Shown here: positions 5,460 to 54,622 of the stretch, in pieces
How the letters are laid out: the number at the start of each line of letters is the position of its first letter
Numbering within the stretch: position 1 is the first letter of the stretch
Assembly (NCBI GenBank): GCA_038318785.1
Contig: JBBQCO010000003.1
Location: 1,761-65,760, forward strand
Reading direction: 5' to 3'
Source: Desulfobulbales bacterium
Lineage (GTDB): Bacteria > Desulfobacterota > Desulfobulbia > Desulfobulbales > Desulfobulbaceae
DNA: 64,000 bases
The notes under the pieces: generated by a model
What the model was told of the DNA's origin: nothing
Database searches by the model: none
What the model saw: the letters and a program-made list of their open reading frames with translations, nothing else
Made by a program: the position numbers and the translations under genes

Positions 5460-7160
5460 ATGGACACACACGTTGCAGAAGATGGGATGACAGTGAACGG
5501 CGCGCAATCCCGTGAGCAGCAGTTTCTCGGGGTATTCCAGAAGATTACCCGGCTGACCTCCATGGTCTTTGACCATCAGGAGGTGATGGACACCATTGTT
5601 CGCGGCCTGCCGGAATTGCTGACTATCGATGCCTGCACCATCAGGCTGCTCGACAGCTCCGTCGGCTCCTTTGTCCTCGGCGCCGCCCACGGAGTATCGC
5701 TGGAGTATCTTTCGCGTGAAGTGATCGACACCGAAGAGACCCTTTCCATGATCCGGTCCGGTTATCCGGTTTACAATGCCCATGTCGACGAAGATCCCTT
5801 CCTGCCGTTTCGCGAGGCCGCCAGTCGCGAGGGAATCAAGAGCGTGCTCACCTTGCCGATCCTTTTCCAGGGGGAATTGATCGGGTTAATGCGCCTCTTG
5901 ACCCGGAGCGCCCGCAGCTTTTCGTCCGGGGAAATCTCTTTTGCCATGGCTTTGGCCGAGCAGGTGGGGATCGCCATTTCCCATGGTCGGATGTTCAAGG
6001 AGATGGAGGCCCAGTTGACCTTCCTCCGCGAGATCCAGTCTATCTCCACCCTAGTCAATTCAACCCTGGATCTGAACGGTATCCTCGCCTCTCTTGCTGA
6101 ACGGGCGGCGGTGACCATGGGCGCCAAAGGGTGCACCCTACGTTTGGTCGATCCCGAATCGGGCCATCTGGAACTGAACGCGTCTTATGGTGTTTCCAGC
6201 GAATACCTGCAGCGCGGCGAGGTGGAAAACGAGCGCAACATCAAGTTGGTGCTGAGCGGGCAACCGGTGGCCATCTATGACGTCTGCCACGACCAGCGCA
6301 TCGAATATCATCAGCAGATGGCGGTCGAGGGCATTGTCTCGCTGCTGGCTGTACCGGTGAAGGTCAACGGCGAGGTGATCGGTGTCATGCGCATCATCAC
6401 CGATACCCCCCGGGTGTTCACCGACACCGAGGTTCGGTTTGCGGTCACCTTGGCCGAGGTCGGCGGCACCGCCATTCGCAATGCGCGTAATTACCAGCGG
6501 ATTAATCTTCTGGTTGAGCAGGCCAGGGGGCACGAAAAATTCCTCGCCGACATCATTAACAGTCTGCAGCATCAGTTGCTGGTGCTTGATCACGACCGCC
6601 GGGTGGTGCTCGCCAACCAGGTTTATCTCGATACCGCCGGCAAGAAAGAGGACGAGGTGCTGGGCACCCACTACGGCGAGTTGTGCCGCGCTGCTGACGG
6701 TGTCTGTCCGGTCGATCAGATCTTCCAGGGTGAGGAGATGCGACCTTTTGTCCAGGAATTCCGGTCCGATGATCAGACGCACTGGTTCGAGCGCACCGCT
6801 TCGCCAATCCGCGATGCCGGCGGCAAGATTGCATATGTTATTGAGGTCATCCGCGACATCACCAGCGAACATCTGCTGACAGAGGAGAAAAATCAAAGGG
6901 GCAAACTGCAGGCAATCGTCGAACTGGCCGGAACCGTGGCCCATGAGATCAACAGTCCGCTTTTCGCGGCCCTTGGAACGGCGCAGCTGCTTGTCGAAGA
7001 CACTCTGCCGCCCGAGGCGGGCGAGGAGTTGGCGGTGATTATCCGCAACTTGCAACAGATCGGCGAGTTGACCCGGAAGATGGCGACTATGACCGGGTTC
7101 ACCAGTCGGGACTATGTGGGCGAGAGTAAAATACTATCATTGACGCAAAACCAAGAGTGA
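5460..7160 (+). CDS. GAF-GAF-PAS-HisKA protein lacking the HATPase domain
   Basis: Two GAF repeats (CTIRL/CTLRL...P...GEL/VIG.MR), PAS, AHEINSPL H-box near the C-terminus, no N/G boxes. Confidence 0.85.
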   Translation: MDTHVAEDGMTVNGAQSREQQFLGVFQKITRLTSMVFDHQEVMDTIVRGLPELLTIDACTIRLLDSSVGSFVLGAAHGVSLEYLSREVIDTEETLSMIRSGYPVYNAHVDEDPFLPFREAASREGIKSVLTLPILFQGELIGLMRLLTRSARSFSSGEISFAMALAEQVGIAISHGRMFKEMEAQLTFLREIQSISTLVNSTLDLNGILASLAERAAVTMGAKGCTLRLVDPESGHLELNASYGVSSEYLQRGEVENERNIKLVLSGQPVAIYDVCHDQRIEYHQQMAVEGIVSLLAVPVKVNGEVIGVMRIITDTPRVFTDTEVRFAVTLAEVGGTAIRNARNYQRINLLVEQARGHEKFLADIINSLQHQLLVLDHDRRVVLANQVYLDTAGKKEDEVLGTHYGELCRAADGVCPVDQIFQGEEMRPFVQEFRSDDQTHWFERTASPIRDAGGKIAYVIEVIRDITSEHLLTEEKNQRGKLQAIVELAGTVAHEINSPLFAALGTAQLLVEDTLPPEAGEELAVIIRNLQQIGELTRKMATMTGFTSRDYVGESKILSLTQNQE

Positions 7161-7313
7161 GTGCCGTAGACCGGCGCAAAGGAGGTGCGAACAGACAAAT
7201 GGGGGATGCATCCTGCTCCTGGCAGGAGAAGACAACAACGTGGATACCGTACCGCTTGTTGCCGGAAACGGCGTCGGGTGGACCGAATTAAATACAATCA
7301 GAGGAGATTGGGT

Positions 7314-8549
7314 ATGAAAAAGAGGGTAGGGATCGTACCATCGCTTTTTGCGGCAATGGTGATGTTTTTTGGTGTCAATACACCCATTGGGGCGGAAATC
7401 GTTACTCCTGCTGGAGAGCAGGGTGCGGTTGCCGCACCAACGATTACCATTGATAAAACCGAACTCAACAACGGCGGCACCATCAAGGTCAGCGGTCAGG
7501 CTCCGGCCGGTAAACCGGTGTATCTTGAGGTCTGGGCGGATGAACGTGATGTGCGCGCCAACCGTTTCGACGCCGATCCCGACAAGGACACCGGCAAGCG
7601 GCCGTATATTTTCTACTTAACCGGTGAAATGCCGGCCTACTACAAGATTTTCGTTCCCAAGACCCTCAAGCCGGTCATAGAGGAGGAAAAGAAACTGGGG
7701 AACAAGTGGAGCTATTCCAAACTGCTCAAAGATCTGGGCGCGGATGTTGCCTACTCTGCTCCGGCCAAGGTCAATATCGAGCGTTATCAATCCACGCTGA
7801 TGGCCAGTGTCATCGGCAGCCGAGGTGATCTCCTCCCGGCCATGGACGAGAAGCAGACCCGGAGCCGCTCCATGCAGCTGATCAAGGCCCGCTTCCGGAG
7901 CATCGGCAATGTGTTTGCCCCTGAGGTCGACGTTAAGCCCGATGGTTCCTATACTGCTGAGCTCAAGATTCGTGATGGCATTGCGCCCGGCAAGTACAAG
8001 ATCGTCGCAGTGGTCGACAAAACGGCCAAAAGCGAGACCATGACCTTTGAGAACAAAATCGCCTTTCCCACCATGTATCTCCCCAACGCGGGAACGAGCA
8101 TGAATCTGATTTATCCGTTCCTCTTGACCCTGGTGGTCGCCGTCTTTGGCGTGTTGATGGGGGCGGGCGGCGGTTTCATCATGAATCCGCTCCTGCTCGC
8201 CCTGTTCCCGGCCCTGCCGCACACCGTGGTTGCCGGTACGGTCACCCCGACCGTTCTCTTCTCCCAGGGGAGCGGCATCTTCAATTACTCCAAAATCAAT
8301 TTCATCAGTTGGAAGCTCGGCTGCGGTATCGGCTGCGCAATGCTCCTGGGCGGTTTCATCGGTCCCAAACTGACCGAGATGATCACCCTGGACCAATTCA
8401 AGTTCGCCTTCGGCTGGATTCTTCTTATCCTCGCCGCCCTGATGCTCTGGCAGACAACGCCCGGCTATCTGGCCAAGAACAAGAAGGAGCAATCCATTCT
8501 CAAAGAGTTCAAGAAACGCGCCGAAGAATCGGCCAAAGGCAAAAAATAA
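7314..8549 (+). CDS. TauE/SafE (TSUP) family half-transporter with a large N-terminal extracytoplasmic domain
   Basis: GAGGAG RBS before ATG 7314, signal-like N-terminus, about 230-aa soluble domain, then GAGGGFIMNP TSUP motif and about 4 TMs. Confidence 0.8.
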   Translation: MKKRVGIVPSLFAAMVMFFGVNTPIGAEIVTPAGEQGAVAAPTITIDKTELNNGGTIKVSGQAPAGKPVYLEVWADERDVRANRFDADPDKDTGKRPYIFYLTGEMPAYYKIFVPKTLKPVIEEEKKLGNKWSYSKLLKDLGADVAYSAPAKVNIERYQSTLMASVIGSRGDLLPAMDEKQTRSRSMQLIKARFRSIGNVFAPEVDVKPDGSYTAELKIRDGIAPGKYKIVAVVDKTAKSETMTFENKIAFPTMYLPNAGTSMNLIYPFLLTLVVAVFGVLMGAGGGFIMNPLLLALFPALPHTVVAGTVTPTVLFSQGSGIFNYSKINFISWKLGCGIGCAMLLGGFIGPKLTEMITLDQFKFAFGWILLILAALMLWQTTPGYLAKNKKEQSILKEFKKRAEESAKGKK

Positions 8550-8574
8550 GAGATAATTCGAGGAGGAATCGATT

Positions 8575-8964
8575 ATGAAAGTAGAATTTTGGGGTCAGGA
8601 ATTTAAGGTCAACATGGTGGTCGGTTGTATCGGTGGTTTTCTTATCGCCATCATGTCGTCGATGTTCGGCTTCGGTGGCGGACCCTTCATGGTGCCGCTG
8701 ATGACCGTGGCTCTGCGCCTGCCCATGTACCTAGTGGTCGGCAGCTCTCTGTTGGCCATCTTTTTCAACACCTCGGTCAGTTCGATGCGCCATTACCAGT
8801 TCGGCAACTTTGACCTGATCTTTTTTCTGGCCATGTTCCCGGCCGCTATTCTCGGCGGTTATATTGCGCCGCAGATCGCCAAACGTGTCAGCCCGCTGGT
8901 GGTTAAGCGAATTGCCTGTGTCGGTCTGACCGTGCTGGCATTGAACCTGCTGGGAGTGTATTGA
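8575..8964 (+). CDS. TauE/SafE (TSUP) family second half-transporter
   Basis: GFGGGPFMVP...VVGSSL motif, about 4 TMs, own GAGGAGG RBS. Confidence 0.82.
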   Translation: MKVEFWGQEFKVNMVVGCIGGFLIAIMSSMFGFGGGPFMVPLMTVALRLPMYLVVGSSLLAIFFNTSVSSMRHYQFGNFDLIFFLAMFPAAILGGYIAPQIAKRVSPLVVKRIACVGLTVLALNLLGVY

Positions 8965-9029
8965 TGCTCTGAGGTCTTTTGGCCGCATTATTGGTTGATT
9001 GATCCGTTTTTAACGTACTCAGTAGATAG

Positions 9030-9067
9030 AAAACGCTGGGACGGAATTCCGTTCTGGCGTTTTTTTT
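9030..9067 (+). terminator. Rho-independent terminator
   Basis: AACGCTGGGACGG-AATT-CCGTTCTGGCGTT hairpin followed by a T run. Confidence 0.8.
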
Positions 9068-9070
9068 GCC

Positions 9071-9559
9071 ACGGGGAAAAGGCTCCAGCAGATCACCGGC
9101 TTGCGTCGGTCCGGTGCCGATCGATTGCAGTCAACGGATGAGACCGTTATTTTGCAGGGTGATCAACTGTTGATTATTTCGGAGCGGAATGATCTAGCGG
9201 TAGCGGAAGAGGTGCAGGCTTTCCCCAAAAAGATTGTGATTATTGATGATAATCCAGTGATTGTTCCGGTCTATACCCGGTTGTTTCAGAAGGCCGGGTT
9301 TCATCCACTCACTGCCGACAGCGGTGATGTGGCCTGGCTTTGATTCTCAGGGAAAAACCGGCCGCCGCAGAGGTGGATTTCATGTTGCCCGGATTGTCCG
9401 GGCTGGAGATGTGCCGACACGTTCGCCAAGCCGTTCCCCATGAATCGATGAAGCTTGTTGTCTTTACTGCAGACGACACGCCTCTAGTGCGCGAACAGTT
9501 TGGCTGCAGGGGCGGATGAGGTGATTGTCAAGAGTTCCGAGGCGTCACACATTATGTAG
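9071..9559 (+). pseudogene. Degraded TrkA-C (RCK_C) + receiver-domain gene fragment
   Basis: ITGLRR...VILQGDQLLIIS then KKIVIIDDN; frameshift near 9340 to LILREKP...DFMLPGLSGLEMC; second shift near 9500 to LAAGADEVIVKS; no start or RBS. Confidence 0.7.
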
Positions 9560-9769
9560 GCGTTGTCAGTCGACTTCTTCATCCTTGATTTTTTATATCC
9601 TGCAAGAGGGACAATCAGATTTTCTCAAGGGGCACGCAAGGTGTGCAATCCAGATGAACAAGCATCTGATCGGCTTACAAAAAGCGAATTACTGCTTGCC
9701 TTAATTTTTGGGGAATGCGATACTAAGCTCAAATTTACTGAAAAATTACTTTTCCCTTGAGGGCCGGAG

Positions 9770-10177
9770 ATGACGACTGCAGGGTCATCAGCATTTAATC
9801 CTGAAAAACGCCGGCATACTAGGGTGATATTTACCCGGAGCGTGAAGGTTTTCATTCAAGATAAACCGCAAGGCCAGTTTCCGGCAAGAAACTTGAGTCT
9901 GGGTGGCCTCTTTATTGAGGGTGAGGTCAATTTACCTATTGGCGAAGATTGTCGTTTGGAATTGCATGAAACTGGGCGCCGATCCAGCCTTATTTTGAAT
10001 TTTTGCGGGACAGTTCTCAGAAGGGAAAAGGGCGGTATCGGAGTAAAGTTCACCAACATGGAAGAAGACAGCTTTATGTTTCTCCAGACCATGGTGCTGT
10101 ACTCTTCAGATGATCCTATAGGGGTAGCTGAAAATTTTCTTGAGGATTTTGTCCAGAAGCCTGCATCAACCTGCTAA
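9770..10177 (+). CDS. PilZ-domain (c-di-GMP-binding) protein
   Basis: EKRRHTRV (RxxxR) and NLSLGG (D/NxSxxG) motifs, GIGVKF. Confidence 0.85.
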   Translation: MTTAGSSAFNPEKRRHTRVIFTRSVKVFIQDKPQGQFPARNLSLGGLFIEGEVNLPIGEDCRLELHETGRRSSLILNFCGTVLRREKGGIGVKFTNMEEDSFMFLQTMVLYSSDDPIGVAENFLEDFVQKPASTC

Positions 10178-10300
10178 TTTCATATATAAAAGACAAATAG
10201 GAAGTTCTTGCCCTGATCTCTGTGGTATGAACTTCTTTTTCTTGTTAGAAAACCGGTTCCGATATCCCCCACGCGAACCGGAGAGACAACTGTAGAGTAC

Positions 10301-11119
10301 ATGAATCAAGCTGAAAAAGAACCAACATCGTTCCTCCGCATCGTTGGCGGGATAGGTGACCGGGCGCTCTATATCCTGACCGATCTCGGTCGAATGGGGA
10401 CCTTTTTATTTTTTGCCTTGCTCGGCATGTTTAAACGCCCTTTTCGTTTTAAAGAGTTAATCAAGCAGCTGGGGTTCATCGGTGCGGGTTCAATCACCGT
10501 TATTTTTTTTACGGCCCTGTCCTCGGGCATGGTGCTTGGTCTGCAAGGGTACTATTCCCTCCATAAATTCGGCGCTGAGGGCATGCTGGGATCGGCTGTT
10601 TCCCTGACTCTGATCATGGAGCTCGGTCCGGTGCTGACTGCCCTGATGGTAGCGGGCCGTGCTGGTTCGGCAATGTGTGCCGAAATTGGCATAATGCGGA
10701 TTTCTGAACAAGTCGACGCGCTGGAATGTATGGCCATCGATCCCTTCCGTTACCTCATCTCCCCCAAATTTTTGGCGGCCTTGATCTCAATTCCTCTGCT
10801 GACCGCTGTTTTTGATGTGGTGGGCATCATGGGCGGGTATCTGGCTGGAGTCAAGTTGATGGGGGTCAACGGGGGCTCTTTTTTTGCGGGCATGCAGCAG
10901 AGTGTCACCAACCACGATATCCGTTTAGGCGTGATCAAATCTTTTGTTTTTGCCTTGCTCCTTGTTTGGATTTGCACAGGCCGCGGGTATTTTGTCCAGA
11001 AGATTCGTGGCGCAGGTTTTGGGGCTGAAAGCGTCAGCAAGGTGACGACCCAGGCGGTGGTCTTTTCTTCAATTTCAGTCTTGATTTTCGATTACCTGCT
11101 GACTGCGGTGTTTTTATGA
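10301..11119 (+). CDS. mlaE: Mla ABC permease
   Basis: ELGPVLTALMVAGRAGSA...EQVDALECMAIDP. Confidence 0.93.
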   Translation: MNQAEKEPTSFLRIVGGIGDRALYILTDLGRMGTFLFFALLGMFKRPFRFKELIKQLGFIGAGSITVIFFTALSSGMVLGLQGYYSLHKFGAEGMLGSAVSLTLIMELGPVLTALMVAGRAGSAMCAEIGIMRISEQVDALECMAIDPFRYLISPKFLAALISIPLLTAVFDVVGIMGGYLAGVKLMGVNGGSFFAGMQQSVTNHDIRLGVIKSFVFALLLVWICTGRGYFVQKIRGAGFGAESVSKVTTQAVVFSSISVLIFDYLLTAVFL

Positions 11120-46976: not shown

Positions 46977-47173
46977 GTTGTCCAGTCACGGCTGCCAAAA
47001 TTTACGGATATCCATCCAAGAAATGTGTTGGATCGTGCGAGAGGATTATTCCTGATTGGTTTGATTTTCTTGAGTTTTTTATCGCGAAACATCAAATAGG
47101 CGTATAAGGTGAGCAGGTTTGAGCTAAAATTCTGTTGATAAAACACCAAAGGATGCATCAGGATGCTGAAGCC

Positions 47174-49972
47174 ATGACTAAGTCTGAGGCACAGACTCGA
47201 TCTGACCTTATTGACCAACAATTGGTGCTGGCCGGTTGGGACGTGAATGATCCTATCCAGGTCATCCAGGAGTTCGATATCCTGACGGAGCCATCATTTG
47301 CCACGGCTGAACCCGCTTCCCCCTATGCAGGCCACCAGTTCAGCGATTACGTCCTGCTGGGAAAAAACAGCAAACCCCTTGCCGTGGTTGAAGCCAAGAA
47401 AACAAGCAGAGATCCGGCTCTCGGCCGGGAACAAGCCAAACAATACTGCACCCATATCCGCAAGCACCTGGGCTGCGAACTCCCCTTTTGTTTCTACACC
47501 AACGGGCTCGAAACCTTTTTCTGGGATCTGGGCAACCACCCTCCTCGCAGAGTGGTGGGCTTTCCAACCCGCGACGACCTTGAGCGATTCCAGTACATCC
47601 GCCGCAACCGCAAGCCGCTCACCCAGGAACTCATCAACACGGCCATCGCCGGTCGTGATTACCAGATTCGCGCCATCCGTGCGGTTCTTGAAGGCATCGA
47701 GCAAAAAAAACGCGATTTTCTCCTGGTCATGGCCACCGGTTCCGGCAAAACCCGCACCTGCATCGCTCTGGTTGACGCCCTCATGCGGGCCAGTCACGCC
47801 GAGAAAATCCTTTTTCTCGTTGATCGCATCGCGCTCAGGGAACAGGCGCTTGCCGCCTTCAAGGAACATTTGCCCCATGAACCGCGTTGGCCCAATGTCG
47901 GAGAAAAGCTGGTCGCCAAGGATCGTCGCATCTATATCGCCACCTATCCCACCATGCTCAACATCATCCGGGATACGGCGCAGCCACTGTCACCCCATTT
48001 TTTTGATTGCATCATCATCGACGAGAGCCATCGCTCCATCTACCATACCTATGGTGAGATTCTCGACTATTTCAAAGCCATCACTCTGGGCCTGACCGCC
48101 ACCCCCACCGACATCATCGACCACAACACTTTTATCCTGTTCCACTGCGACGACGGTCTCCCCACCTTTGCCTACACTTTCGAGGAGGCGGTCAACAACA
48201 TCCCGCCGTATCTCTGCAATTTTCAGGTGATGAAAATTCAGACCCGGTTCCAGATGGAAGGCATCAGCAAGCGCACCATCACTCTCGAAGATCAGAAAAA
48301 GCTCCTCCTGGAAGGTAAGGAGATCGAAGAGATCAACTTCGAAGGTTCGCAGCTGGAAAAGCAGGTGATCAACAAGGGCACCAACACCCTGATCGTCAAA
48401 GAGTTCATGGAGGAATGCATCAAGGACGCTAATGGGGTTCTCCCCGGCAAGACCATCTTTTTTTGCTCTTCCGTGGCTCATGCCCGCAGGATCGAAGTGA
48501 TCTTCGATGCGCTTTATCCGCAGTATCACGGGGAATTGGCCAAGGTGCTCGTTTCCGACGATCCTCGTGTCTACGGCAAGGGCGGCCTGCTCGAGCAGTT
48601 CACCCTCAACGACATGCCCCGTGTGGCCATCAGCGTCGATATGCTCGATACCGGCATTGACGTCCGCGAAATCGTCAATCTGGTGTTCGCCAAACCGGTT
48701 TATTCGTACACTAAATTTTGGCAAATGATTGGACGCGGCACCCGATTGCTGGAAACAAGCAAGCCCAAGCCCTGGTGCCTCGAAAAAGAGGTTTTTCTCG
48801 TACTCGACTGCTGGGACAATTTCGAATATTTCAAACTCACCCCCAAAGGCAAGGAGCTGCCGCCGCAACTGCCCTTGCCGGTGCGACTGGTTGGCTTGCG
48901 TCTCGACAAGATCGAAAAGACCATCGACGCTGATCTGCCGGAAATTGCCTCCCGTGAAATTATCAAACTGCGCCGCCATATTGATGATTTGCCGGGAAAT
49001 TCGGTGGTGATCAAAGAGGCGGCGACCGCCCTCAATCGGCTTGCAGAAGAAAACTTCTGGATCAACCTGAACCATCAAAAACTCGAATTTCTCCGCACCG
49101 AAATCAAGCCCCTGTTCCGCACCCTTTCCGAAGTTGATTTCAAGGCAATGCGCTTCGAGCGCGATGTGCTGGAATACTCGTTGGCCCGGTTGCGCGACGA
49201 GAAAAGGAGGGCGGAAACACTAAAAGATGGGATTGTGGAGCAGATCGGCGAGTTGCCCCTCTCTGTGAGTTTCGTCCAGGTGGAAGAGTCGTTGATCCGG
49301 GCCAGTCAGACCAATCACTTCTGGGCCAAGGCGGATGAAGATGCCTTGGATGAGCTCACCACCCGGCTTGGTCCGTTGATGAAATTCCGAGAACAGACCA
49401 CCGGTCCCGGCCCAATCCACCTCAATCTGACCGATGCGCTCCATCGCAAGGAATGGGTGGAGTTTGGGCCGCAGCATGAAGCGGTGCATGTCAGCCGCTA
49501 CCGGGAGATGGTCGAGGCGCTGATCAATGAGCTGACCACCCGGCACCCGGTGCTGATCAAAATAAAAAGCGGTGACGAGATCACTCCCACAGAAGCGCAG
49601 GAGTTGGCGGAACAGTTGCACGCCGAGCATCCCCATATCACCGAGGACCTGCTGCGGCAGGTCTACAAAAACAGCAAAGCGCATTTCATCCAGTTCATCC
49701 GTCACATCCTCGGCATCGAACACCTGAAAAGTTTCCCGGAAACGGTCACCGAGGCCTTTATCCTTTTCATTGGTCGGCACACCAACCTCAGCCGCCGCCA
49801 ACTCGACTTCCTCGACCTCCTGAAAAATTTTCTCATCGAGCGCGAAAAATTGGACAAAAAAGATCTAATCAGCGCCCCCTTTACCGTCATCCACCCGCAG
49901 GGTATTCGCGGCGTGTTCAGCCCGGCCGAGATCAACGAGATCCTCCAGTTCACTGAACGGCTGGCGGCTTAA
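47174..49972 (+). CDS. hsdR: Type I restriction enzyme R subunit (EcoEI/EcoAI-like)
   Basis: SDYVL...VEAKK nuclease, MATGSGKT, DESHRS, GLTATP, DTGID, QMIGRGTR. Confidence 0.93.
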   Translation: MTKSEAQTRSDLIDQQLVLAGWDVNDPIQVIQEFDILTEPSFATAEPASPYAGHQFSDYVLLGKNSKPLAVVEAKKTSRDPALGREQAKQYCTHIRKHLGCELPFCFYTNGLETFFWDLGNHPPRRVVGFPTRDDLERFQYIRRNRKPLTQELINTAIAGRDYQIRAIRAVLEGIEQKKRDFLLVMATGSGKTRTCIALVDALMRASHAEKILFLVDRIALREQALAAFKEHLPHEPRWPNVGEKLVAKDRRIYIATYPTMLNIIRDTAQPLSPHFFDCIIIDESHRSIYHTYGEILDYFKAITLGLTATPTDIIDHNTFILFHCDDGLPTFAYTFEEAVNNIPPYLCNFQVMKIQTRFQMEGISKRTITLEDQKKLLLEGKEIEEINFEGSQLEKQVINKGTNTLIVKEFMEECIKDANGVLPGKTIFFCSSVAHARRIEVIFDALYPQYHGELAKVLVSDDPRVYGKGGLLEQFTLNDMPRVAISVDMLDTGIDVREIVNLVFAKPVYSYTKFWQMIGRGTRLLETSKPKPWCLEKEVFLVLDCWDNFEYFKLTPKGKELPPQLPLPVRLVGLRLDKIEKTIDADLPEIASREIIKLRRHIDDLPGNSVVIKEAATALNRLAEENFWINLNHQKLEFLRTEIKPLFRTLSEVDFKAMRFERDVLEYSLARLRDEKRRAETLKDGIVEQIGELPLSVSFVQVEESLIRASQTNHFWAKADEDALDELTTRLGPLMKFREQTTGPGPIHLNLTDALHRKEWVEFGPQHEAVHVSRYREMVEALINELTTRHPVLIKIKSGDEITPTEAQELAEQLHAEHPHITEDLLRQVYKNSKAHFIQFIRHILGIEHLKSFPETVTEAFILFIGRHTNLSRRQLDFLDLLKNFLIEREKLDKKDLISAPFTVIHPQGIRGVFSPAEINEILQFTERLAA

Positions 49973-49976
49973 GGTC

Positions 49977-50378
49977 ATGAACCACGAAAATCACGAAAGG
50001 CACGAAAAGGTATTTTTCAAAGAAGAGAGCTACCTGATTCAAGGCGCCATCTTCGAGGTATACCGAGAGATGGGCTGCGGCTTTCTCGAAGCCGTGTATC
50101 AGGAGTGCCTGGAAAAGGAATTGCACCTGCGCGGTATCCCTTTTGTCGCTCAACCGGAACTTGCATTGAGCTACAAAGGGGATCGTTTGCGGCTGGCCTA
50201 CAAACCGGATCTGATTTGCTATGGGCAGATCATTGTCGAACTGAAAGCCGTCAAGGAAGTCGCTGCTGAGCACAAGGCCCAAGTGCTCAACTACCTCAAA
50301 GCAACCGGCATGAAGCTTGGATTGCTCGTCAATTTCGGCACCTATCCCAAGGCAAACATCATCCGATTAGCCCTCTAG
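49977..50378 (+). CDS. GxxExxY-family protein (putative PD-(D/E)XK nuclease)
   Basis: GFLEAVY motif, KPDLI...IIVELKA, QVLNYLKATG..LGLLVNFG. Confidence 0.92.
   Translation: MNHENHERHEKVFFKEESYLIQGAIFEVYREMGCGFLEAVYQECLEKELHLRGIPFVAQPELALSYKGDRLRLAYKPDLICYGQIIVELKAVKEVAAEHKAQVLNYLKATGMKLGLLVNFGTYPKANIIRLAL
49980..50009 (+). repeat. Array A: 3x 9-nt CACGAAAnn, forward
   Basis: AAC-CACGAAAAT-CACGAAAGG-CACGAAAAG; encodes NHENHERHEK. Confidence 0.95.
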
Positions 50379-50380
50379 CA

Positions 50381-50400
50381 CTTTCGTATTTTTCGTGCTT
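50381..50400 (-). repeat. Array B: 2x 9-nt repeat, inverted, truncated
   Basis: CTTTCGTAT-TTTTCGTGC-TT, 2 nt after the GxxExxY stop. Confidence 0.85.
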
Positions 50401-50410
50401 GAAGACCATG

Positions 50411-50440
50411 AACCACGAAAGGCACGAAAAGCACAAAAAA
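50411..50440 (+). repeat. Array C: 3x 9-nt repeat, forward
   Basis: AAC-CACGAAAGG-CACGAAAAG-CACAAAAAA. Confidence 0.92.
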
Positions 50441-50571
50441 GTATTGTTCAAGGAAGAAATCTGCCGGATTCAAGCCGCCAATTTCGAGGTATACCGAGAG
50501 ATAGGTTTGGGATCACTCCAATCGATGTATCCGGAGTGTCTGGAGCAACCTTACCCGTTTAACCCTTTACC

Positions 50572-50598
50572 TTTCGTGTTGTTCGTGTCTTTCGTGGT
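50572..50598 (-). repeat. Array D: 3x 9-nt repeat, inverted
   Basis: TTTCGTGTT-GTTCGTGTC-TTTCGTGGT, just upstream of the hsdM RBS. Confidence 0.95.
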
Positions 50599-50616
50599 CA
50601 AATAAAAGGAACTCCC

Positions 50617-52344
50617 ATGCTGCAAAACAACCCCGAAATCAAAAGCAAAATCGACCAGCTGTGGAACAAATTCTGGTCCGGCGGTATCTCCAACCCGCTC
50701 ACCGCCATCGAGCAGATCACCTATCTGCTGTTCATGAAGCGGCTCGACGAACTCGACCAGAAAAAGCTGGCCGATGCCGACTTCACCGGCGAGCCCTATA
50801 CCTCCAAATTCGAAGGACAATGGATACCACCGGAATACCGCGCTAAAGCAAGGGAAGACGACAGCCAAAAAGAGAGCGACAAACGCCGGGCCGATGCCAA
50901 GATTTATGAAATCGACAAGCGCACCTTGCGCTGGAGCGAATTCAAGCGCATGCAGGCCGAAGAGATGCTCCAGCACGCCCAGACCAAGGTTTTCCCCTTC
51001 CTCAAGGACATGAACGGGACCGAAAGCAACTTCACCCACCATATGCGAAACGCCGTGTTCATCATCCCCAAACCGAGCCTGTTGGTGGAGGCAGTCAAGA
51101 CCATCGACGAGATCTTTGAGGTCATGGAAACAGACTCTCGGGAAAAGGGGCAGGCCTTTCAGGACATCCAGGGCGATATTTACGAGATGCTCCTTTCCGA
51201 GATCGCCAGCGCCGGCAAAAACGGGCAGTTCCGCACCCCGCGGCACATCATCAAGCTGATGGCCGAGTTGGTGCGTCCGCAACTCGGCCACCGCATTGCT
51301 GACCCGGCCTGCGGGACCGGCGGCTTTTTGCTCGGCGCCTACCAGTACATCGTCACCCAATTGGCCATCAAGGCCGGCACCAACGACCTGCGGCCCGATG
51401 AAGACGGTTTTATCCGCACCTCGGTGGCGGCTGGGTATACCGAAAAGGCGCAGGCCATTCTGCAAGCCTCCCTCTACGGTTACGACATCGACAGCACCAT
51501 GGTCCGCCTGGGATTGATGAACCTGATGATGCACGGCATCGACGAGCCCCAGATCGACTACAAGGACACCCTCAGTAAGAGTTACCTCGAGGAAGCCGAG
51601 TACGACATCGTCATGGCCAACCCGCCCTTCACCGGCAGCATCGACAAGGGAGACATCAATGAAAACCTGACCCTTGCCACCACCAAGACCGAGCTGCTCT
51701 TTGTCGAGAACATCTACCGCCTGCTCAAAAAGGGTGGCACTGCCTGCGTCATTGTGCCGCAAGGGGTGCTGTTCGGCTCCGGCAAGGCTTTCAAAGACCT
51801 CCGGGAAAAATTGGTGACGCGCTGCGACCTCAAGGCCGTGATCACCATGCCCAGCGGCGTGTTCAAACCCTACGCCGGGGTCAGCACCGCGATTCTGCTT
51901 TTCACCAAGGTTTGGGGTCCGAAGGACAAGGTGACCCGACCAGCCACGGAATCGGTCTGGTTTTACGAGATGCAAGCCGATGGGTATTCGTTGGACGACA
52001 AGCGCACCAAGCAGGAAGGGGTTGGCGATTTGCAGGATATTGTCGCCCGATTTCATGCCCGCAACGATGAAACCGGGAATGACCGCACCCGGAAATGCTT
52101 TCTCGTGCCCCGCGTTGAGATTGAGGATGAAGGGTATGACCTGTCGCTCTCCCGGTATAAGGAGGATGTGTTTGAGGAGGTGGCTTATGAGGCTCCGGGG
52201 GTGATTTTGGGGAGGTTGTTGGTGGGGGAGTTGGGGGAGGAGTTTTTTAACCACGAAAGACACGAACAACACGAAAAGGTTTTGGAGGGGGCGAAGAGCG
52301 GGATTGTGCGGGAATTGCTGGAGTTGCGGGGGATGATTGGATGA
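50617..52344 (+). CDS. hsdM: Type I N6-adenine methyltransferase M subunit
   Basis: GQFRTPRH, DPACGTGGFL, NPPF, GVFKPYAGV. Confidence 0.95.
   Translation: MLQNNPEIKSKIDQLWNKFWSGGISNPLTAIEQITYLLFMKRLDELDQKKLADADFTGEPYTSKFEGQWIPPEYRAKAREDDSQKESDKRRADAKIYEIDKRTLRWSEFKRMQAEEMLQHAQTKVFPFLKDMNGTESNFTHHMRNAVFIIPKPSLLVEAVKTIDEIFEVMETDSREKGQAFQDIQGDIYEMLLSEIASAGKNGQFRTPRHIIKLMAELVRPQLGHRIADPACGTGGFLLGAYQYIVTQLAIKAGTNDLRPDEDGFIRTSVAAGYTEKAQAILQASLYGYDIDSTMVRLGLMNLMMHGIDEPQIDYKDTLSKSYLEEAEYDIVMANPPFTGSIDKGDINENLTLATTKTELLFVENIYRLLKKGGTACVIVPQGVLFGSGKAFKDLREKLVTRCDLKAVITMPSGVFKPYAGVSTAILLFTKVWGPKDKVTRPATESVWFYEMQADGYSLDDKRTKQEGVGDLQDIVARFHARNDETGNDRTRKCFLVPRVEIEDEGYDLSLSRYKEDVFEEVAYEAPGVILGRLLVGELGEEFFNHERHEQHEKVLEGAKSGIVRELLELRGMIG
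52250..52276 (+). repeat. Array E: solo forward array in frame inside hsdM; exact reverse complement of array D
   Basis: ACCACGAAAGACACGAACAACACGAAA, 27/27 match; encodes NHERHEQHE(K). Confidence 0.95.
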
Positions 52345-53564
52345 AAATGCTGCAACTCCATACCGTTACGAAAATAATTGCCGGGCAATCTCCGCCGTCA
52401 TCAACATACAATTCTACGGGAGATGGGTTACCATTTTTTCAAGGTAAAGCTGATTTTCAAGAGAAATTCCCAACGGTTCGTATGTGGTGCAACAGCGCGA
52501 AACGGAAAGAAGCCAAACCCGGTGACATTCTGATGTCAGTTCGTGCGCCCGTTGGTTCTGTAAACTTTTGCGACCGGAAATCAATTTTAGGCCGAGGGCT
52601 ATCGGCGATTAGAGCGGGTTCGAGGATAGACTCTGAATTTCTCTACTACTTCTTGAAATCGAGCGAACAGTCGATAGCAAAACTCGGTACAGGCTCTACA
52701 TTCAAAGCCATTACACAGGAAACACTCAAAAAAATAGAAATCCCCCTCCCGCCATTCGACGACCAAATACGCATTGCCCATTTGCTCGGCAAAGTGGAAG
52801 GGCTGATCGCCCAACGCAAACAACACCTGCAACAACTCGACGAACTCCTCAAAAGCGTCTTTCTGGAGATGTTTGGTGACCCGGTGCGTAATGAGAAGGG
52901 GTGGGACACTTCCGATTTTGAAAATATCCTTTCTGATTTAAGAAATGGCCTATCACCTTCCAAAGGCGGCAGCGAAAAAGGATGTGTGTACACGTTATCA
53001 GCTATAACTGGTCAATGTTTCAAGGAAATCTACAAGGAAGATACGTTTTCTCAGATTCAAGATAAATATTTTCCGAAAGAGAATGACTTTCTTATCTGTC
53101 GTGGTAATGGCAACAAAAAGTTAGTTGGTAAAGGGTATTTTTTCACAGGGAAGAGCTCAAACATTATTTTCCCGGATACAATAATTGGCGTTTCGATAGC
53201 GCCTAATACTATCAACAGCCACTTTCTTGAGTCGTTATGGAAAACACGATTCATTAGGCTGCAAATCGAGAATAATGCGAGAACTACAAATGGAGCGTAC
53301 AAGATAAATCAGGAGGTAATAAAAAAGATCAAAATAATCTTTCCTCCTTCAAATCTCCAAGACCAATTTGCCGCCATCGTTGAAAAGGTCGAAAGCCTCA
53401 AAACCCGCTACCAGCAAAGCCTTGCCGACCTGGAAACCCTCTATGGTGCGTTGAGTCAGAAGGCGTTCAAGGGCGAGCTGGATCTGTCGCGGGTGCCGCT
53501 GACGGCAAGGGAATTGGACCACCGGAACCAAGCAAGTGAAGCTGTGGAGGCGGTCGTGCCATGA
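52341..53564 (+). CDS. hsdS: Type I specificity subunit
   Basis: Two AT-rich TRDs separated by IPLPP..DQ.RI and FPP..LQ.QF conserved helices, FLEMFGDP. Confidence 0.93.
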   Translation: MKMLQLHTVTKIIAGQSPPSSTYNSTGDGLPFFQGKADFQEKFPTVRMWCNSAKRKEAKPGDILMSVRAPVGSVNFCDRKSILGRGLSAIRAGSRIDSEFLYYFLKSSEQSIAKLGTGSTFKAITQETLKKIEIPLPPFDDQIRIAHLLGKVEGLIAQRKQHLQQLDELLKSVFLEMFGDPVRNEKGWDTSDFENILSDLRNGLSPSKGGSEKGCVYTLSAITGQCFKEIYKEDTFSQIQDKYFPKENDFLICRGNGNKKLVGKGYFFTGKSSNIIFPDTIIGVSIAPNTINSHFLESLWKTRFIRLQIENNARTTNGAYKINQEVIKKIKIIFPPSNLQDQFAAIVEKVESLKTRYQQSLADLETLYGALSQKAFKGELDLSRVPLTARELDHRNQASEAVEAVVP

Positions 53565-54622
53565 AGAGCCGCGACCAAAAGCTGATCCGCAATTCGACGA
53601 CGGAGTTTTTGTTGTACACCACGCCCAATGGCAAGGTGAAGGTGGAGATTTTTCTGAAAGATGAAAACATCTGGCTGACGCAGGAACGCATTGCCCAACT
53701 GTTCGGGGTGCAGCGCCCGGCCATCACCAAGCACCTGAAAAACATCTTTGAATCTGGTGAGTTGCAGGAGGGAGTGGTCAGTTCCGTTTTGGAACAGACC
53801 ACTCCGCACGGCGCGATAGAGGGCAAAACGCAAACCAAAGCCGTCAAGTTCTACAATCTGGATGCCATCATCTCCGTCGGTTACCGGGTCAATTCGCTAC
53901 AAGCGACACAGTTTCGTATCTGGGCAACGGAGCGCTTGAAAGAATACATCATCAAGGGCTTCACCATGGATGATGAACGCCTGAAAAACCCCACCCGCAT
54001 TTTCGGTGAGGACTATTTCGAAGAGCAGCTCGCCCGGATCCGGGATATCCGCTCTAGCGAACGACGCTTCTACCAAAAAATCACCGACATCTACGGCCAG
54101 TGCAGCGCCGACTACAACAAGGACGCCGAGGAGACCCAACGCTTCTTTGCCACGGTCCAAAACAAACTCCACTGGGCCATTGCCAGGCAAACGGCGGCAG
54201 AGATTATCCGCAACCGGGCGGATAGCCTGAAATCGAACATGGGGCTGACTTCCTGGAAAAATGGTCCCGCAGGCCCCATCCGCAAACCGGATGTTTCGAT
54301 TGCGAAGAACTATTTGAATGAAGAGGAATTGGATAGCCTAAACCGGATTGTGACCATGTATCTCGACTATGCCGAAATCCAGGCCCAGAAGCGGAAAGTG
54401 ATGAACATGCGGGACTGGATTCAGAAGCTGGATGCCTTCCTTCAGTTCAATGAACGAGAAATTCTGCATCATTCTGGCAAGGTCAGCGCCGAGATAGCCA
54501 AAAGTTTTGCCGAGTGCGAATTCGAGAAATACAGCCTTGCGCAGGATCAGCTCTTTGAGAGCGATTTCGACAAGGTGATGAAGCAGATCGAGTCCTCCGG
54601 TACGAAGGGAGGCGAGAAATGA
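53561..54622 (+). CDS. RhuM-family protein
   Basis: WLTQ.RIA.LF, YNLDAIISVGYRVNS, IRDIRSSERRFYQK, AKNYL. Confidence 0.9.
   Translation: MKSRDQKLIRNSTTEFLLYTTPNGKVKVEIFLKDENIWLTQERIAQLFGVQRPAITKHLKNIFESGELQEGVVSSVLEQTTPHGAIEGKTQTKAVKFYNLDAIISVGYRVNSLQATQFRIWATERLKEYIIKGFTMDDERLKNPTRIFGEDYFEEQLARIRDIRSSERRFYQKITDIYGQCSADYNKDAEETQRFFATVQNKLHWAIARQTAAEIIRNRADSLKSNMGLTSWKNGPAGPIRKPDVSIAKNYLNEEELDSLNRIVTMYLDYAEIQAQKRKVMNMRDWIQKLDAFLQFNEREILHHSGKVSAEIAKSFAECEFEKYSLAQDQLFESDFDKVMKQIESSGTKGGEK

Follow-up and report, generated by a model that had tools for sequence, protein, structure and literature searches.

A GxxExxY nuclease gene framed by inverted repeat arrays, inserted between hsdR and hsdM of a Desulfobulbales Type I restriction operon

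How a small gene of the GxxExxY (PDDEXK_3) family, framed by short inverted repeats, comes to lie between two subunits of a Type I restriction-modification operon is the question raised by a locus of a Desulfobulbales bacterium (assembly GCA_038318785.1), which we analysed within a stretch of 64,000 nucleotides (nt) of contig JBBQCO010000003.1, referred to here as the window. Between the restriction gene hsdR and the modification gene hsdM lie 633 bases that hold the GxxExxY gene, an internally deleted copy of it, and four arrays of a 9-nt repeat unit. We find that this stretch is an insertion relative to orthologous operons, and that it belongs to a class of GxxExxY genes framed by inverted arrays of a 7-nt core with a 9-nt period and AACCAC...GTGGTT ends. 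As to its nature, the explanation we favour, with confidence evenly balanced, is that a repeat-armed nuclease cassette was inserted in the operon spacer, where the 633 bases hold it as a tandem pair with one intact and one internally deleted copy; its protein would recognise the arms of the cassette, which would persist as a hitch-hiker of defence operons. The features needed for the argument are as follows, with positions counted from the first letter of the window.

47135–49972, plus strand: hsdR, the Type I restriction subunit, with ResIII, EcoEI_R_C and HSDR_N matches and orthologues 77–80% identical
49980–50007, plus strand: array A, left arm of the intact cassette, AAC followed by three CACGAAAnn units
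49977–50378, plus strand: intact GxxExxY/PDDEXK_3 nuclease gene, 133 amino acids (aa), with PF13366 and TIGR04256 matches
50382–50397, minus strand: array B, right arm of the intact cassette, two units that read TACGAAA and CACGAAA on the minus strand
50411–50438, plus strand: array C, left arm of the truncated copy, three units
50408–50605, plus strand: truncated GxxExxY copy, internally deleted, a 65-codon open reading frame (ORF) from ATG at 50408 to TAA at 50605
50572–50599, minus strand: array D, right arm of the truncated copy, three units, followed by AAATAAAAGGAA (A-run plus Shine-Dalgarno sequence) and the hsdM start
50617–52344, plus strand: hsdM, the Type I methyltransferase, with N6_Mtase and HsdM_N matches and orthologues 77–86% identical
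52249–52276, plus strand: array E, an in-frame insertion in the 3' part of hsdM (FFNHERHEQHEKV), the exact reverse complement of D

The hsdR stop codon (TAA, 49970–49972) lies 4 nt upstream of the cassette ATG, and array A is translated as NHENHERHE at the N terminus of the GxxExxY protein. The four arrays A–D, first described in a first-pass annotation made from the sequence letters, are real: the pattern CACGAAANNCACGAAA, with at most one mismatch, matches nine times in the window against 0.03 expected, and the arrays are confined to this locus in the 3.49-Mb, 222-contig assembly, where eight further one-mismatch matches are isolated single matches rather than arrays. The description of A and B as enclosing an intact gene and of C and D as enclosing a deleted copy also holds, with 143 nt of the truncated copy being 80% identical to the start of the intact one, codons 1–57 being kept at 58% identity, and the catalytic part with D78, E88 and K90 being absent; the truncated ORF runs through array D, and its TAA lies 11 nt upstream of the hsdM ATG. 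Terminal inverted repeats are present, the outer ends being AACCAC and GTGGT(C), i.e. AACCACGAAA...TTTCGTGGT(T/C), and the arm pairs are 76–85% complementary. No transposase or integrase is found in the 633-nt insert, whose ORFs are the GxxExxY gene and its truncated copy only.

The evidence for insertion comes from orthologous operons, with HsdM 77–86% identical, in five further genomes of the order. The operons of G042 and G037 (HsdM identity 82% and 77%, respectively) have an array-free hsdR–hsdM spacer of about 40 nt, which shows that the 633-nt stretch was inserted. The first-pass annotation had proposed an inserted, repeat-bounded cassette and an alignment of orthologous junctions to find empty sites; two such sites are thereby found, both in operons only 77–82% identical at HsdM. 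The other operons are filled, the junction in G039 and G018 by a KilA-N gene together with a GxxExxY cassette and further hairpins, and that in G155 by an ORF of about 300 aa plus a remnant array. By alignment, the array E insert, read in HsdM as NHERHEQHEK, is present in the window, G039 and G018 and absent from G155, G042 and G037, and the three operons that have it also carry GxxExxY. Array E is most likely a lone arm in hsdM, and C/D a decayed tandem copy.

Three side observations concern the same junction. It is a hot spot for passenger genes, as seen in the window, G039, G018 and G155; the G155 junction ORF has a C-terminal end similar to that of an ORF which precedes the cassette in another locus, L031; and the hsdM array of G039, in which there is an unusual insert of 31 nt, recurs almost exactly, in inverted orientation, directly downstream of hsdR.

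That the window cassette is one of a class follows from a search of one genome per species, for which the single query was the window protein. It yielded 80 loci from 15 phyla with proteins 62–80% identical to the window GxxExxY protein, in which 341 arrays of CAC[GA][GA]A cores were counted. Of the distances between cores up to 40 nt, most (535) are 9 nt; lag-9 identity (unbiased autocorrelation) is 0.355 in gene flanks versus 0.279 in controls; and an array lies within 150 nt of the gene in 75 of the 80 relatives. A forward array upstream combined with a reverse array downstream brackets 47/80 GxxExxY genes versus 7/110 neighbouring ORFs, which confirms the association of convergent arrays with these genes that the first-pass annotation had wanted checked. 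Among the layouts, forward array–gene–reverse array is the most frequent (24/80), ahead of hairpin–gene–hairpin (9/80). In the wider family, inverted arrays are present, by reading of the flanks, around 18 of 19 genes from relatives, with the unit varying by clade (CACGAAA, CACGGAA, CACAGAT, CACAAAT, CGCAAAG, CGCGAAG and others among the 19 genes) and the period appearing, on reading rather than computation, to be 8–10 nt in more distant members.

GxxExxY/PDDEXK_3 is a very common protein family without known function, and our literature search on it found no published description of its association with repeat arrays. The spread of close relatives over 15 phyla fits a 2012 survey of the PD-(D/E)XK superfamily, which listed the function of PF13366 as unknown and noted 'multiple transfers'. 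Plasmid carriage does not explain the spread, because only 8 of 72,556 plasmid records hold a relative, all below 60% identity. As a separate observation, 5–10 tandem whole-hairpin copies with periods of 37–110 nt lie beside the GxxExxY gene in three loci (L051 1264–1728, L078 27–947, and L083).

The protein itself is predicted to be an active enzyme, on the strength of its conserved catalytic residues and a confident fold model. It matches PF13366 (E 2.7e-42, 144 bits, cut-off 22) and TIGR04256 (E 8.5e-41, 139 bits, cut-off 35), which are the sole profile matches of the window nuclease, with no GIY-YIG domain among them. The motif that gives the family its name corresponds to G35, E38 and Y41, and the PD-(D/E)XK core to D78, E88 and K90; across 70 sequences, E38, D78, E88 and K90 are each kept in 90% or more. 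An AF2 model has a pLDDT of 92, with residues 1–9, the translated array, being disordered, and a Foldseek search with it matched Cas4 SSO0001, lambda exonuclease and Hjc, among other PD-(D/E)XK enzymes, at probability 0.9–1.0 and TM 0.4–0.56. The modelled fold is that of PD-(D/E)XK nucleases, the likeness to known enzymes being generic, with no close structural relative, and a sequence search of the PDB with the nuclease gave no match.

What the arms conserve bears on whether the element acts as DNA or as RNA. An RNA-level element would form A:B and C:D (or A:D) stems from which the insert is looped out; RNase III would perhaps process these stems, and hsdR–hsdM expression would stay coupled as in a 23S rRNA intervening sequence. 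Such looped-out stems can form, since the minimum-energy fold of 49960–50625 pairs A with B and C with D (−222 kcal/mol, z −4.4), so that this part of the mRNA pairing proposed in the first-pass annotation stands; moreover, the insert has no terminator, complementarity is complete (25/25) between the arms at the two ends of the G039 insert, and a PF05635 '23S IVS protein' gene occurs in a related operon of the BREX defence type. The paired arms share their cores and their AAC/GTT ends, with the 7-nt cores being near-invariant and the 2-nt spacers free. Core base 5 (A or G) matches at 0.92 within a hairpin versus 0.59 between loci, whereas spacer matches between paired arms are at the permutation level (for example, 0.25/0.48 observed vs 0.27/0.51 permuted) and hence not compensatory. 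Nor is there a sense-strand G·U excess among non-Watson-Crick positions (172 vs 187, p 0.46), and in solo hairpins the G·U bias runs the opposite way. Because the spacers are not complementary beyond permutation and no G·U excess is seen, these comparisons indicate that constraint acts on the core sequence and not on continuous pairing, and for the same reasons the loop-out of the insert from mRNA gains no support. Lone arms such as E and arrays translated inside ORFs without a nearby partner also speak against it, as do the period of 8–10 nt that distant members appear to have, the absence of any Rfam match in the insert, an A:D complementarity of only 81%, and the PF05635 gene, which lies between brxC and pglX and has no such arrays. 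We therefore regard an RNA-level element as improbable, and the intervening-sequence role is not supported.

The 23S rRNA intervening sequences that carry an ORF (S23p in Leptospira and Coxiella; PMC4990558) share with the cassette a small ORF bounded by inverted repeats inside a transcription unit whose downstream function is kept, but differ in their rRNA location and PF05635 protein, with the cassette lying between protein-coding genes, encoding a PF13366 protein and lacking compensatory arm pairing.

The arrays also preserve a record of copying. Core type is uniform within a locus, and in many loci whole hairpins with identical, distinct left and right spacers recur as direct copies, from which it follows that whole hairpins are copied as double-stranded units. 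Few long-range inverted pairs are perfect: besides D/E, which agree at every position of the core span that was compared (25/25; 27 nt once the ACC end is counted), there are the outermost arms in G039 and a small number of further cases, and these perfect pairs probably mark recent copying. The outer ends of D and E both face hsdM, and no recombinase gene lies nearby. We considered whether D and E might form an invertible hsdM switch and judge this unlikely: there is no recombinase, an inversion would cut off the final 22 codons, and only 4/86 loci have a divergent perfect pair of this kind.

The operon into which the cassette is inserted is identified as a Type I restriction-modification system by the Pfam matches of hsdR, hsdM and hsdS together, and it continues downstream with two further genes.

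52341–53564, plus strand: hsdS, with a Methylase_S match
53561–54622, plus strand: RhuM-family passenger gene after hsdS, with Virulence_RhuM matched at 1e-111

Across the 15 phyla, too, the framed genes lie mostly in defence operons. In five related genomes the arrays are clustered within a few kb in single operons rather than dispersed, these operons being Type I systems in the window, G039, G018 and G012 (a genome placed in the same genus as the window genome) and, in G016, a BREX operon with the order brxB, GxxExxY cassette, brxC, PF05635 gene and pglX. In the latter (L110, G016:C155:39000-57000), pglX (6598–10371, minus strand) holds three in-frame hairpins of about 23 codons each, which read as STKNTKNTK...FVPFVD, and the gene next to it holds one more. 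G012 has a second restriction locus (L111, G012:C1:2361000-2372000) with hairpins but without a GxxExxY gene; this cluster is 160 kb from the sole GxxExxY gene of that complete genome, and its hairpins lie in and around an N6_N4 DNA methylase split in two pieces, beside an AbiEii-like AAA_21 gene. Among 146 immediate neighbours of the 80 cassettes are 20 HsdR, 19 HsdS, 9 HsdM and 8 N6_N4 methylases, and 78% of the neighbours are co-directional; some cassettes sit in housekeeping contexts. Hairpins that lack the gene are found in intergenic positions as well as in frame within the genes for HsdS, methyltransferases and HsdR, with 21 long ORFs having arrays well inside them (10 HsdS, 5–6 methyltransferases and 3–4 HsdR).

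Within restriction operons the arrays lie at module boundaries, namely hsdR/hsdM, the hsdM 3' end, the HsdS inter-domain linker and the region before hsdR; they also lie in BREX pglX. According to our reading of the alignment consensus, the ten HsdS ORFs with an in-frame array (L035, L038, L041, L051, L059, L061, L071, L093, L096 and L112) carry it at the junction of the central conserved helix and the second target-recognition domain, where it reads as TTKxTKxT. In EcoR124I/II, a change in HsdS domain spacing alters recognition-site spacing, and by analogy a change in copy number of the 3-codon unit in HsdS might alter domain spacing and hence the spacing of the recognition site. That the arrays might be the recognition site of the Type I enzyme itself is a reading we rejected, because the same cores flank operons whose HsdS proteins are only 37–39% identical where their HsdM proteins are 77–86% identical, and also sit in BREX loci.

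The ends of the cassette are equally suited to life inside operons, and no promoter-like or terminator-like site was found in the insert. In nearly all cassettes (L030–L109), the right arm is followed by GTGGTT, an A-run and AGGA 6–9 nt before the next ATG, and in the window an A-run plus AAGGA serves hsdM. A frequent left-end sequence is ATGAACCAC, which allows the cassette ATG to overlap with a TGA stop upstream of it, and both end features would keep translation coupled. We rejected as weak the idea that the 9-nt unit, being stop-free and frame-preserving, is a designed feature: a random 9-mer array is stop-free in three forward frames by rough estimate about 65% of the time, and distant members appear to use 8 or 10 nt.

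The published system nearest to the cassette is the Ssn family of GIY-YIG single-strand nucleases, whose genes are flanked by hairpin repeats (NTS/SRM) that they cut (Chenal et al. 2025, PMC11893778). In both cases a small stand-alone nuclease gene has its own hairpin-forming repeats next to it, on one side or on both, each variant of the nuclease has its variant of the repeat, and the family is widespread across phyla. The differences are that Ssn has the GIY-YIG fold and GxxExxY that of PD-(D/E)XK, that the NTS is one short hairpin whereas GxxExxY arms consist of tandem 7-nt cores with a 9-nt period, that NTS repeats are dispersed in hundreds of copies while GxxExxY arrays lie in a few defence operons, and that Ssn nucleases bind and cut their repeats, whereas binding and cutting of the arrays by GxxExxY are predicted. 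This precedent of small nuclease genes flanked by hairpin repeats that they bind and cut (PMC11893778) suggests another explanation, in which a domesticated site-specific nuclease and its cognate repeats serve the host: the enzyme would act on the arrays, for example as single-stranded DNA, and modulate recombination, DNA uptake, or the expression or modular exchange of defence operons, with the arrays being functional sites rather than selfish ends. The conserved catalytic residues, the arrays at restriction-operon module boundaries and in BREX pglX, and the contrast between HsdS and HsdM identity are in keeping with such a role. Truncated copies, remnant arms and tandem junk (C/D, G155), however, look more like products of decay than like a function that is kept up, orthologous operons work in the absence of arrays, some cassettes lie among housekeeping genes as noted above, and no phenotype is known; we hold a host function to be possible, if somewhat unlikely.

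Does the protein, then, read the cores? Residue 22 lies in helix 1, in the motif Y-x-I-Q-G-A, and among 83 loci of the close family it is Q or N with CACGAAA in 70/70 and R with CACGGAA or CACAGAA in 13/13; Gln/Asn with adenine and Arg with guanine are the classic pairings. The same correspondence can be followed in one orthologous array, array D, which reads CACGAAA-ga-CACGAAC-aa-CACGAAA in the window and CACGGAA-ga-CACGGAC-aa-CACGGAA in G018, with the spacers (GA, AA) and the final C of the middle core being kept and base 5 changed from A to G in every unit; the in-frame HsdM array of G018 is also HG-type. On the tree there are only two to three changes at residue 22, and the loci provide one to three concordant independent pairs, where significance would take six or more. 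The match between residue 22 and base 5 may reflect a single evolutionary event and is a lead, not a result. The recognition of the arrays by the nuclease, as claimed in the first-pass annotation, accordingly fares only in part: the cores are conserved and residue 22 tracks base 5, which is suggestive only. A more far-reaching version would have a programmable recognition pair, in which helix 1 reads the 7-nt core, residue 22 contacts base 5, and array cutting at the module boundaries of restriction and BREX operons drives the spreading of the element and, through modular exchange or altered spacing, also changes defence specificity, with an array in frame inside a modification gene making its own imprecise loss lethal; we consider this version improbable.

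The favoured explanation, that of a repeat-armed cassette hitch-hiking in defence operons, would work through the following steps. The nuclease, which probably reads the repeated cores, would bind them with several protomers per arm and nick or cut at or near the arm ends, after which host repair or replication would copy cassettes and hairpins to nearby sites. The element would remain harmless inside operons by virtue of the start codon at its left end, the A-run and ribosome-binding site after its right end, the lack of a terminator and the stop-free repeat unit, and the cassette would persist and travel by hitch-hiking in restriction and other defence operons, which are addictive and often transferred.

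Several findings weigh against this explanation. The GxxExxY gene at 49977–50378 is the sole family copy in the window genome, so that only one locus is seen; in agreement with the first-pass annotation, there is no target-site duplication on comparing filled and empty hsdR–hsdM junctions; and we know of no PD-(D/E)XK nuclease that alone transposes DNA. A single ancestral insertion can account for the filled orthologous operons, and the clustering of arrays fits operon co-transfer as well as local hopping. Metagenome (Logan) contigs, at a locus depth of 2–7, hold no clear presence/absence polymorphism, and no movement is seen. Regarding recognition, a single R clade was not rejected (p 0.60) in an approximately unbiased (AU) test on 36 rows of the 85-row set, and L003, a more distant member, combines N with a base 5 that is G. 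In the same metagenome data, one low-depth X2 contig joins 50008 to 50579 via seven other letters, and could be a solo-hairpin allele or come from another organism.

The single locus and the lack of visible movement would also suit an inert relic, in which cassette and arrays came with the restriction operon by horizontal transfer and are now idle, the repeats being kept by slippage and gene conversion. In several other phyla, by reading of the flanks, the downstream hsdM begins MLQNNPE right after the arm, which suggests co-transfer of the cassette plus operon. The gene, however, is intact and its catalytic residues are conserved across 15 phyla at 62–80% identity, and the cores are near-invariant beside free spacers, which together argue for ongoing selection on gene and cores; we find an inert relic improbable.

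Set against other known elements, the repeat-armed cassette has further, more distant analogues in REPIN/RAYT systems and Rickettsia palindromic elements (RPE). It shares with REP/REPIN-RAYT a single-copy nuclease-type gene framed by an inverted short repeat and gene-less hairpin doublets made from the same repeat, but the RAYT protein is a Y1/HUH tyrosine transposase, whereas the fold and profiles of GxxExxY are those of PD-(D/E)XK and not of HUH enzymes. REPINs are dispersed genome-wide and strictly extragenic, in contrast to the GxxExxY arrays, which are local copies, often in frame inside genes, with multi-unit arms. RPE, according to Ogata et al. in 2000, are reportedly inserted in frame in protein-coding genes and translated as extra loops; GxxExxY arrays are likewise in-frame translated insertions (STKNTKNTK...FVPFVD in PglX and NHERHEQHEK in HsdM), the differences being that RPE have neither an associated nuclease gene nor tandem-unit arms. 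Miniature inverted-repeat transposable elements (MITEs) and their parent insertion sequences resemble the cassette in that full-length, internally deleted and gene-less derivatives share ends, with several protein-site-like repeats per end, and differ in that the cassette has no transposase of a known family, no target-site duplication and one locus in the window genome.

What this locus adds is the empty sites, the tight association of one subfamily with restriction and BREX operons, where some copies are in frame in the subunits, the statistics on spacers and wobble pairs, and the residue-22/base-5 lead. One GxxExxY subfamily thus emerges as lying almost entirely inside restriction-modification and BREX operons, even in frame in their subunits, and the locus and its relatives give a concrete, testable substrate in the form of 7-nt core arrays plus a candidate specificity residue. 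If it is true that the protein reads its arms, small nucleases that carry their own target repeats would be known from two folds, GIY-YIG in the Ssn family having been the first; this would offer a possible source of new sequence-specific nucleases, and it might explain some of the modular variability of Type I systems.

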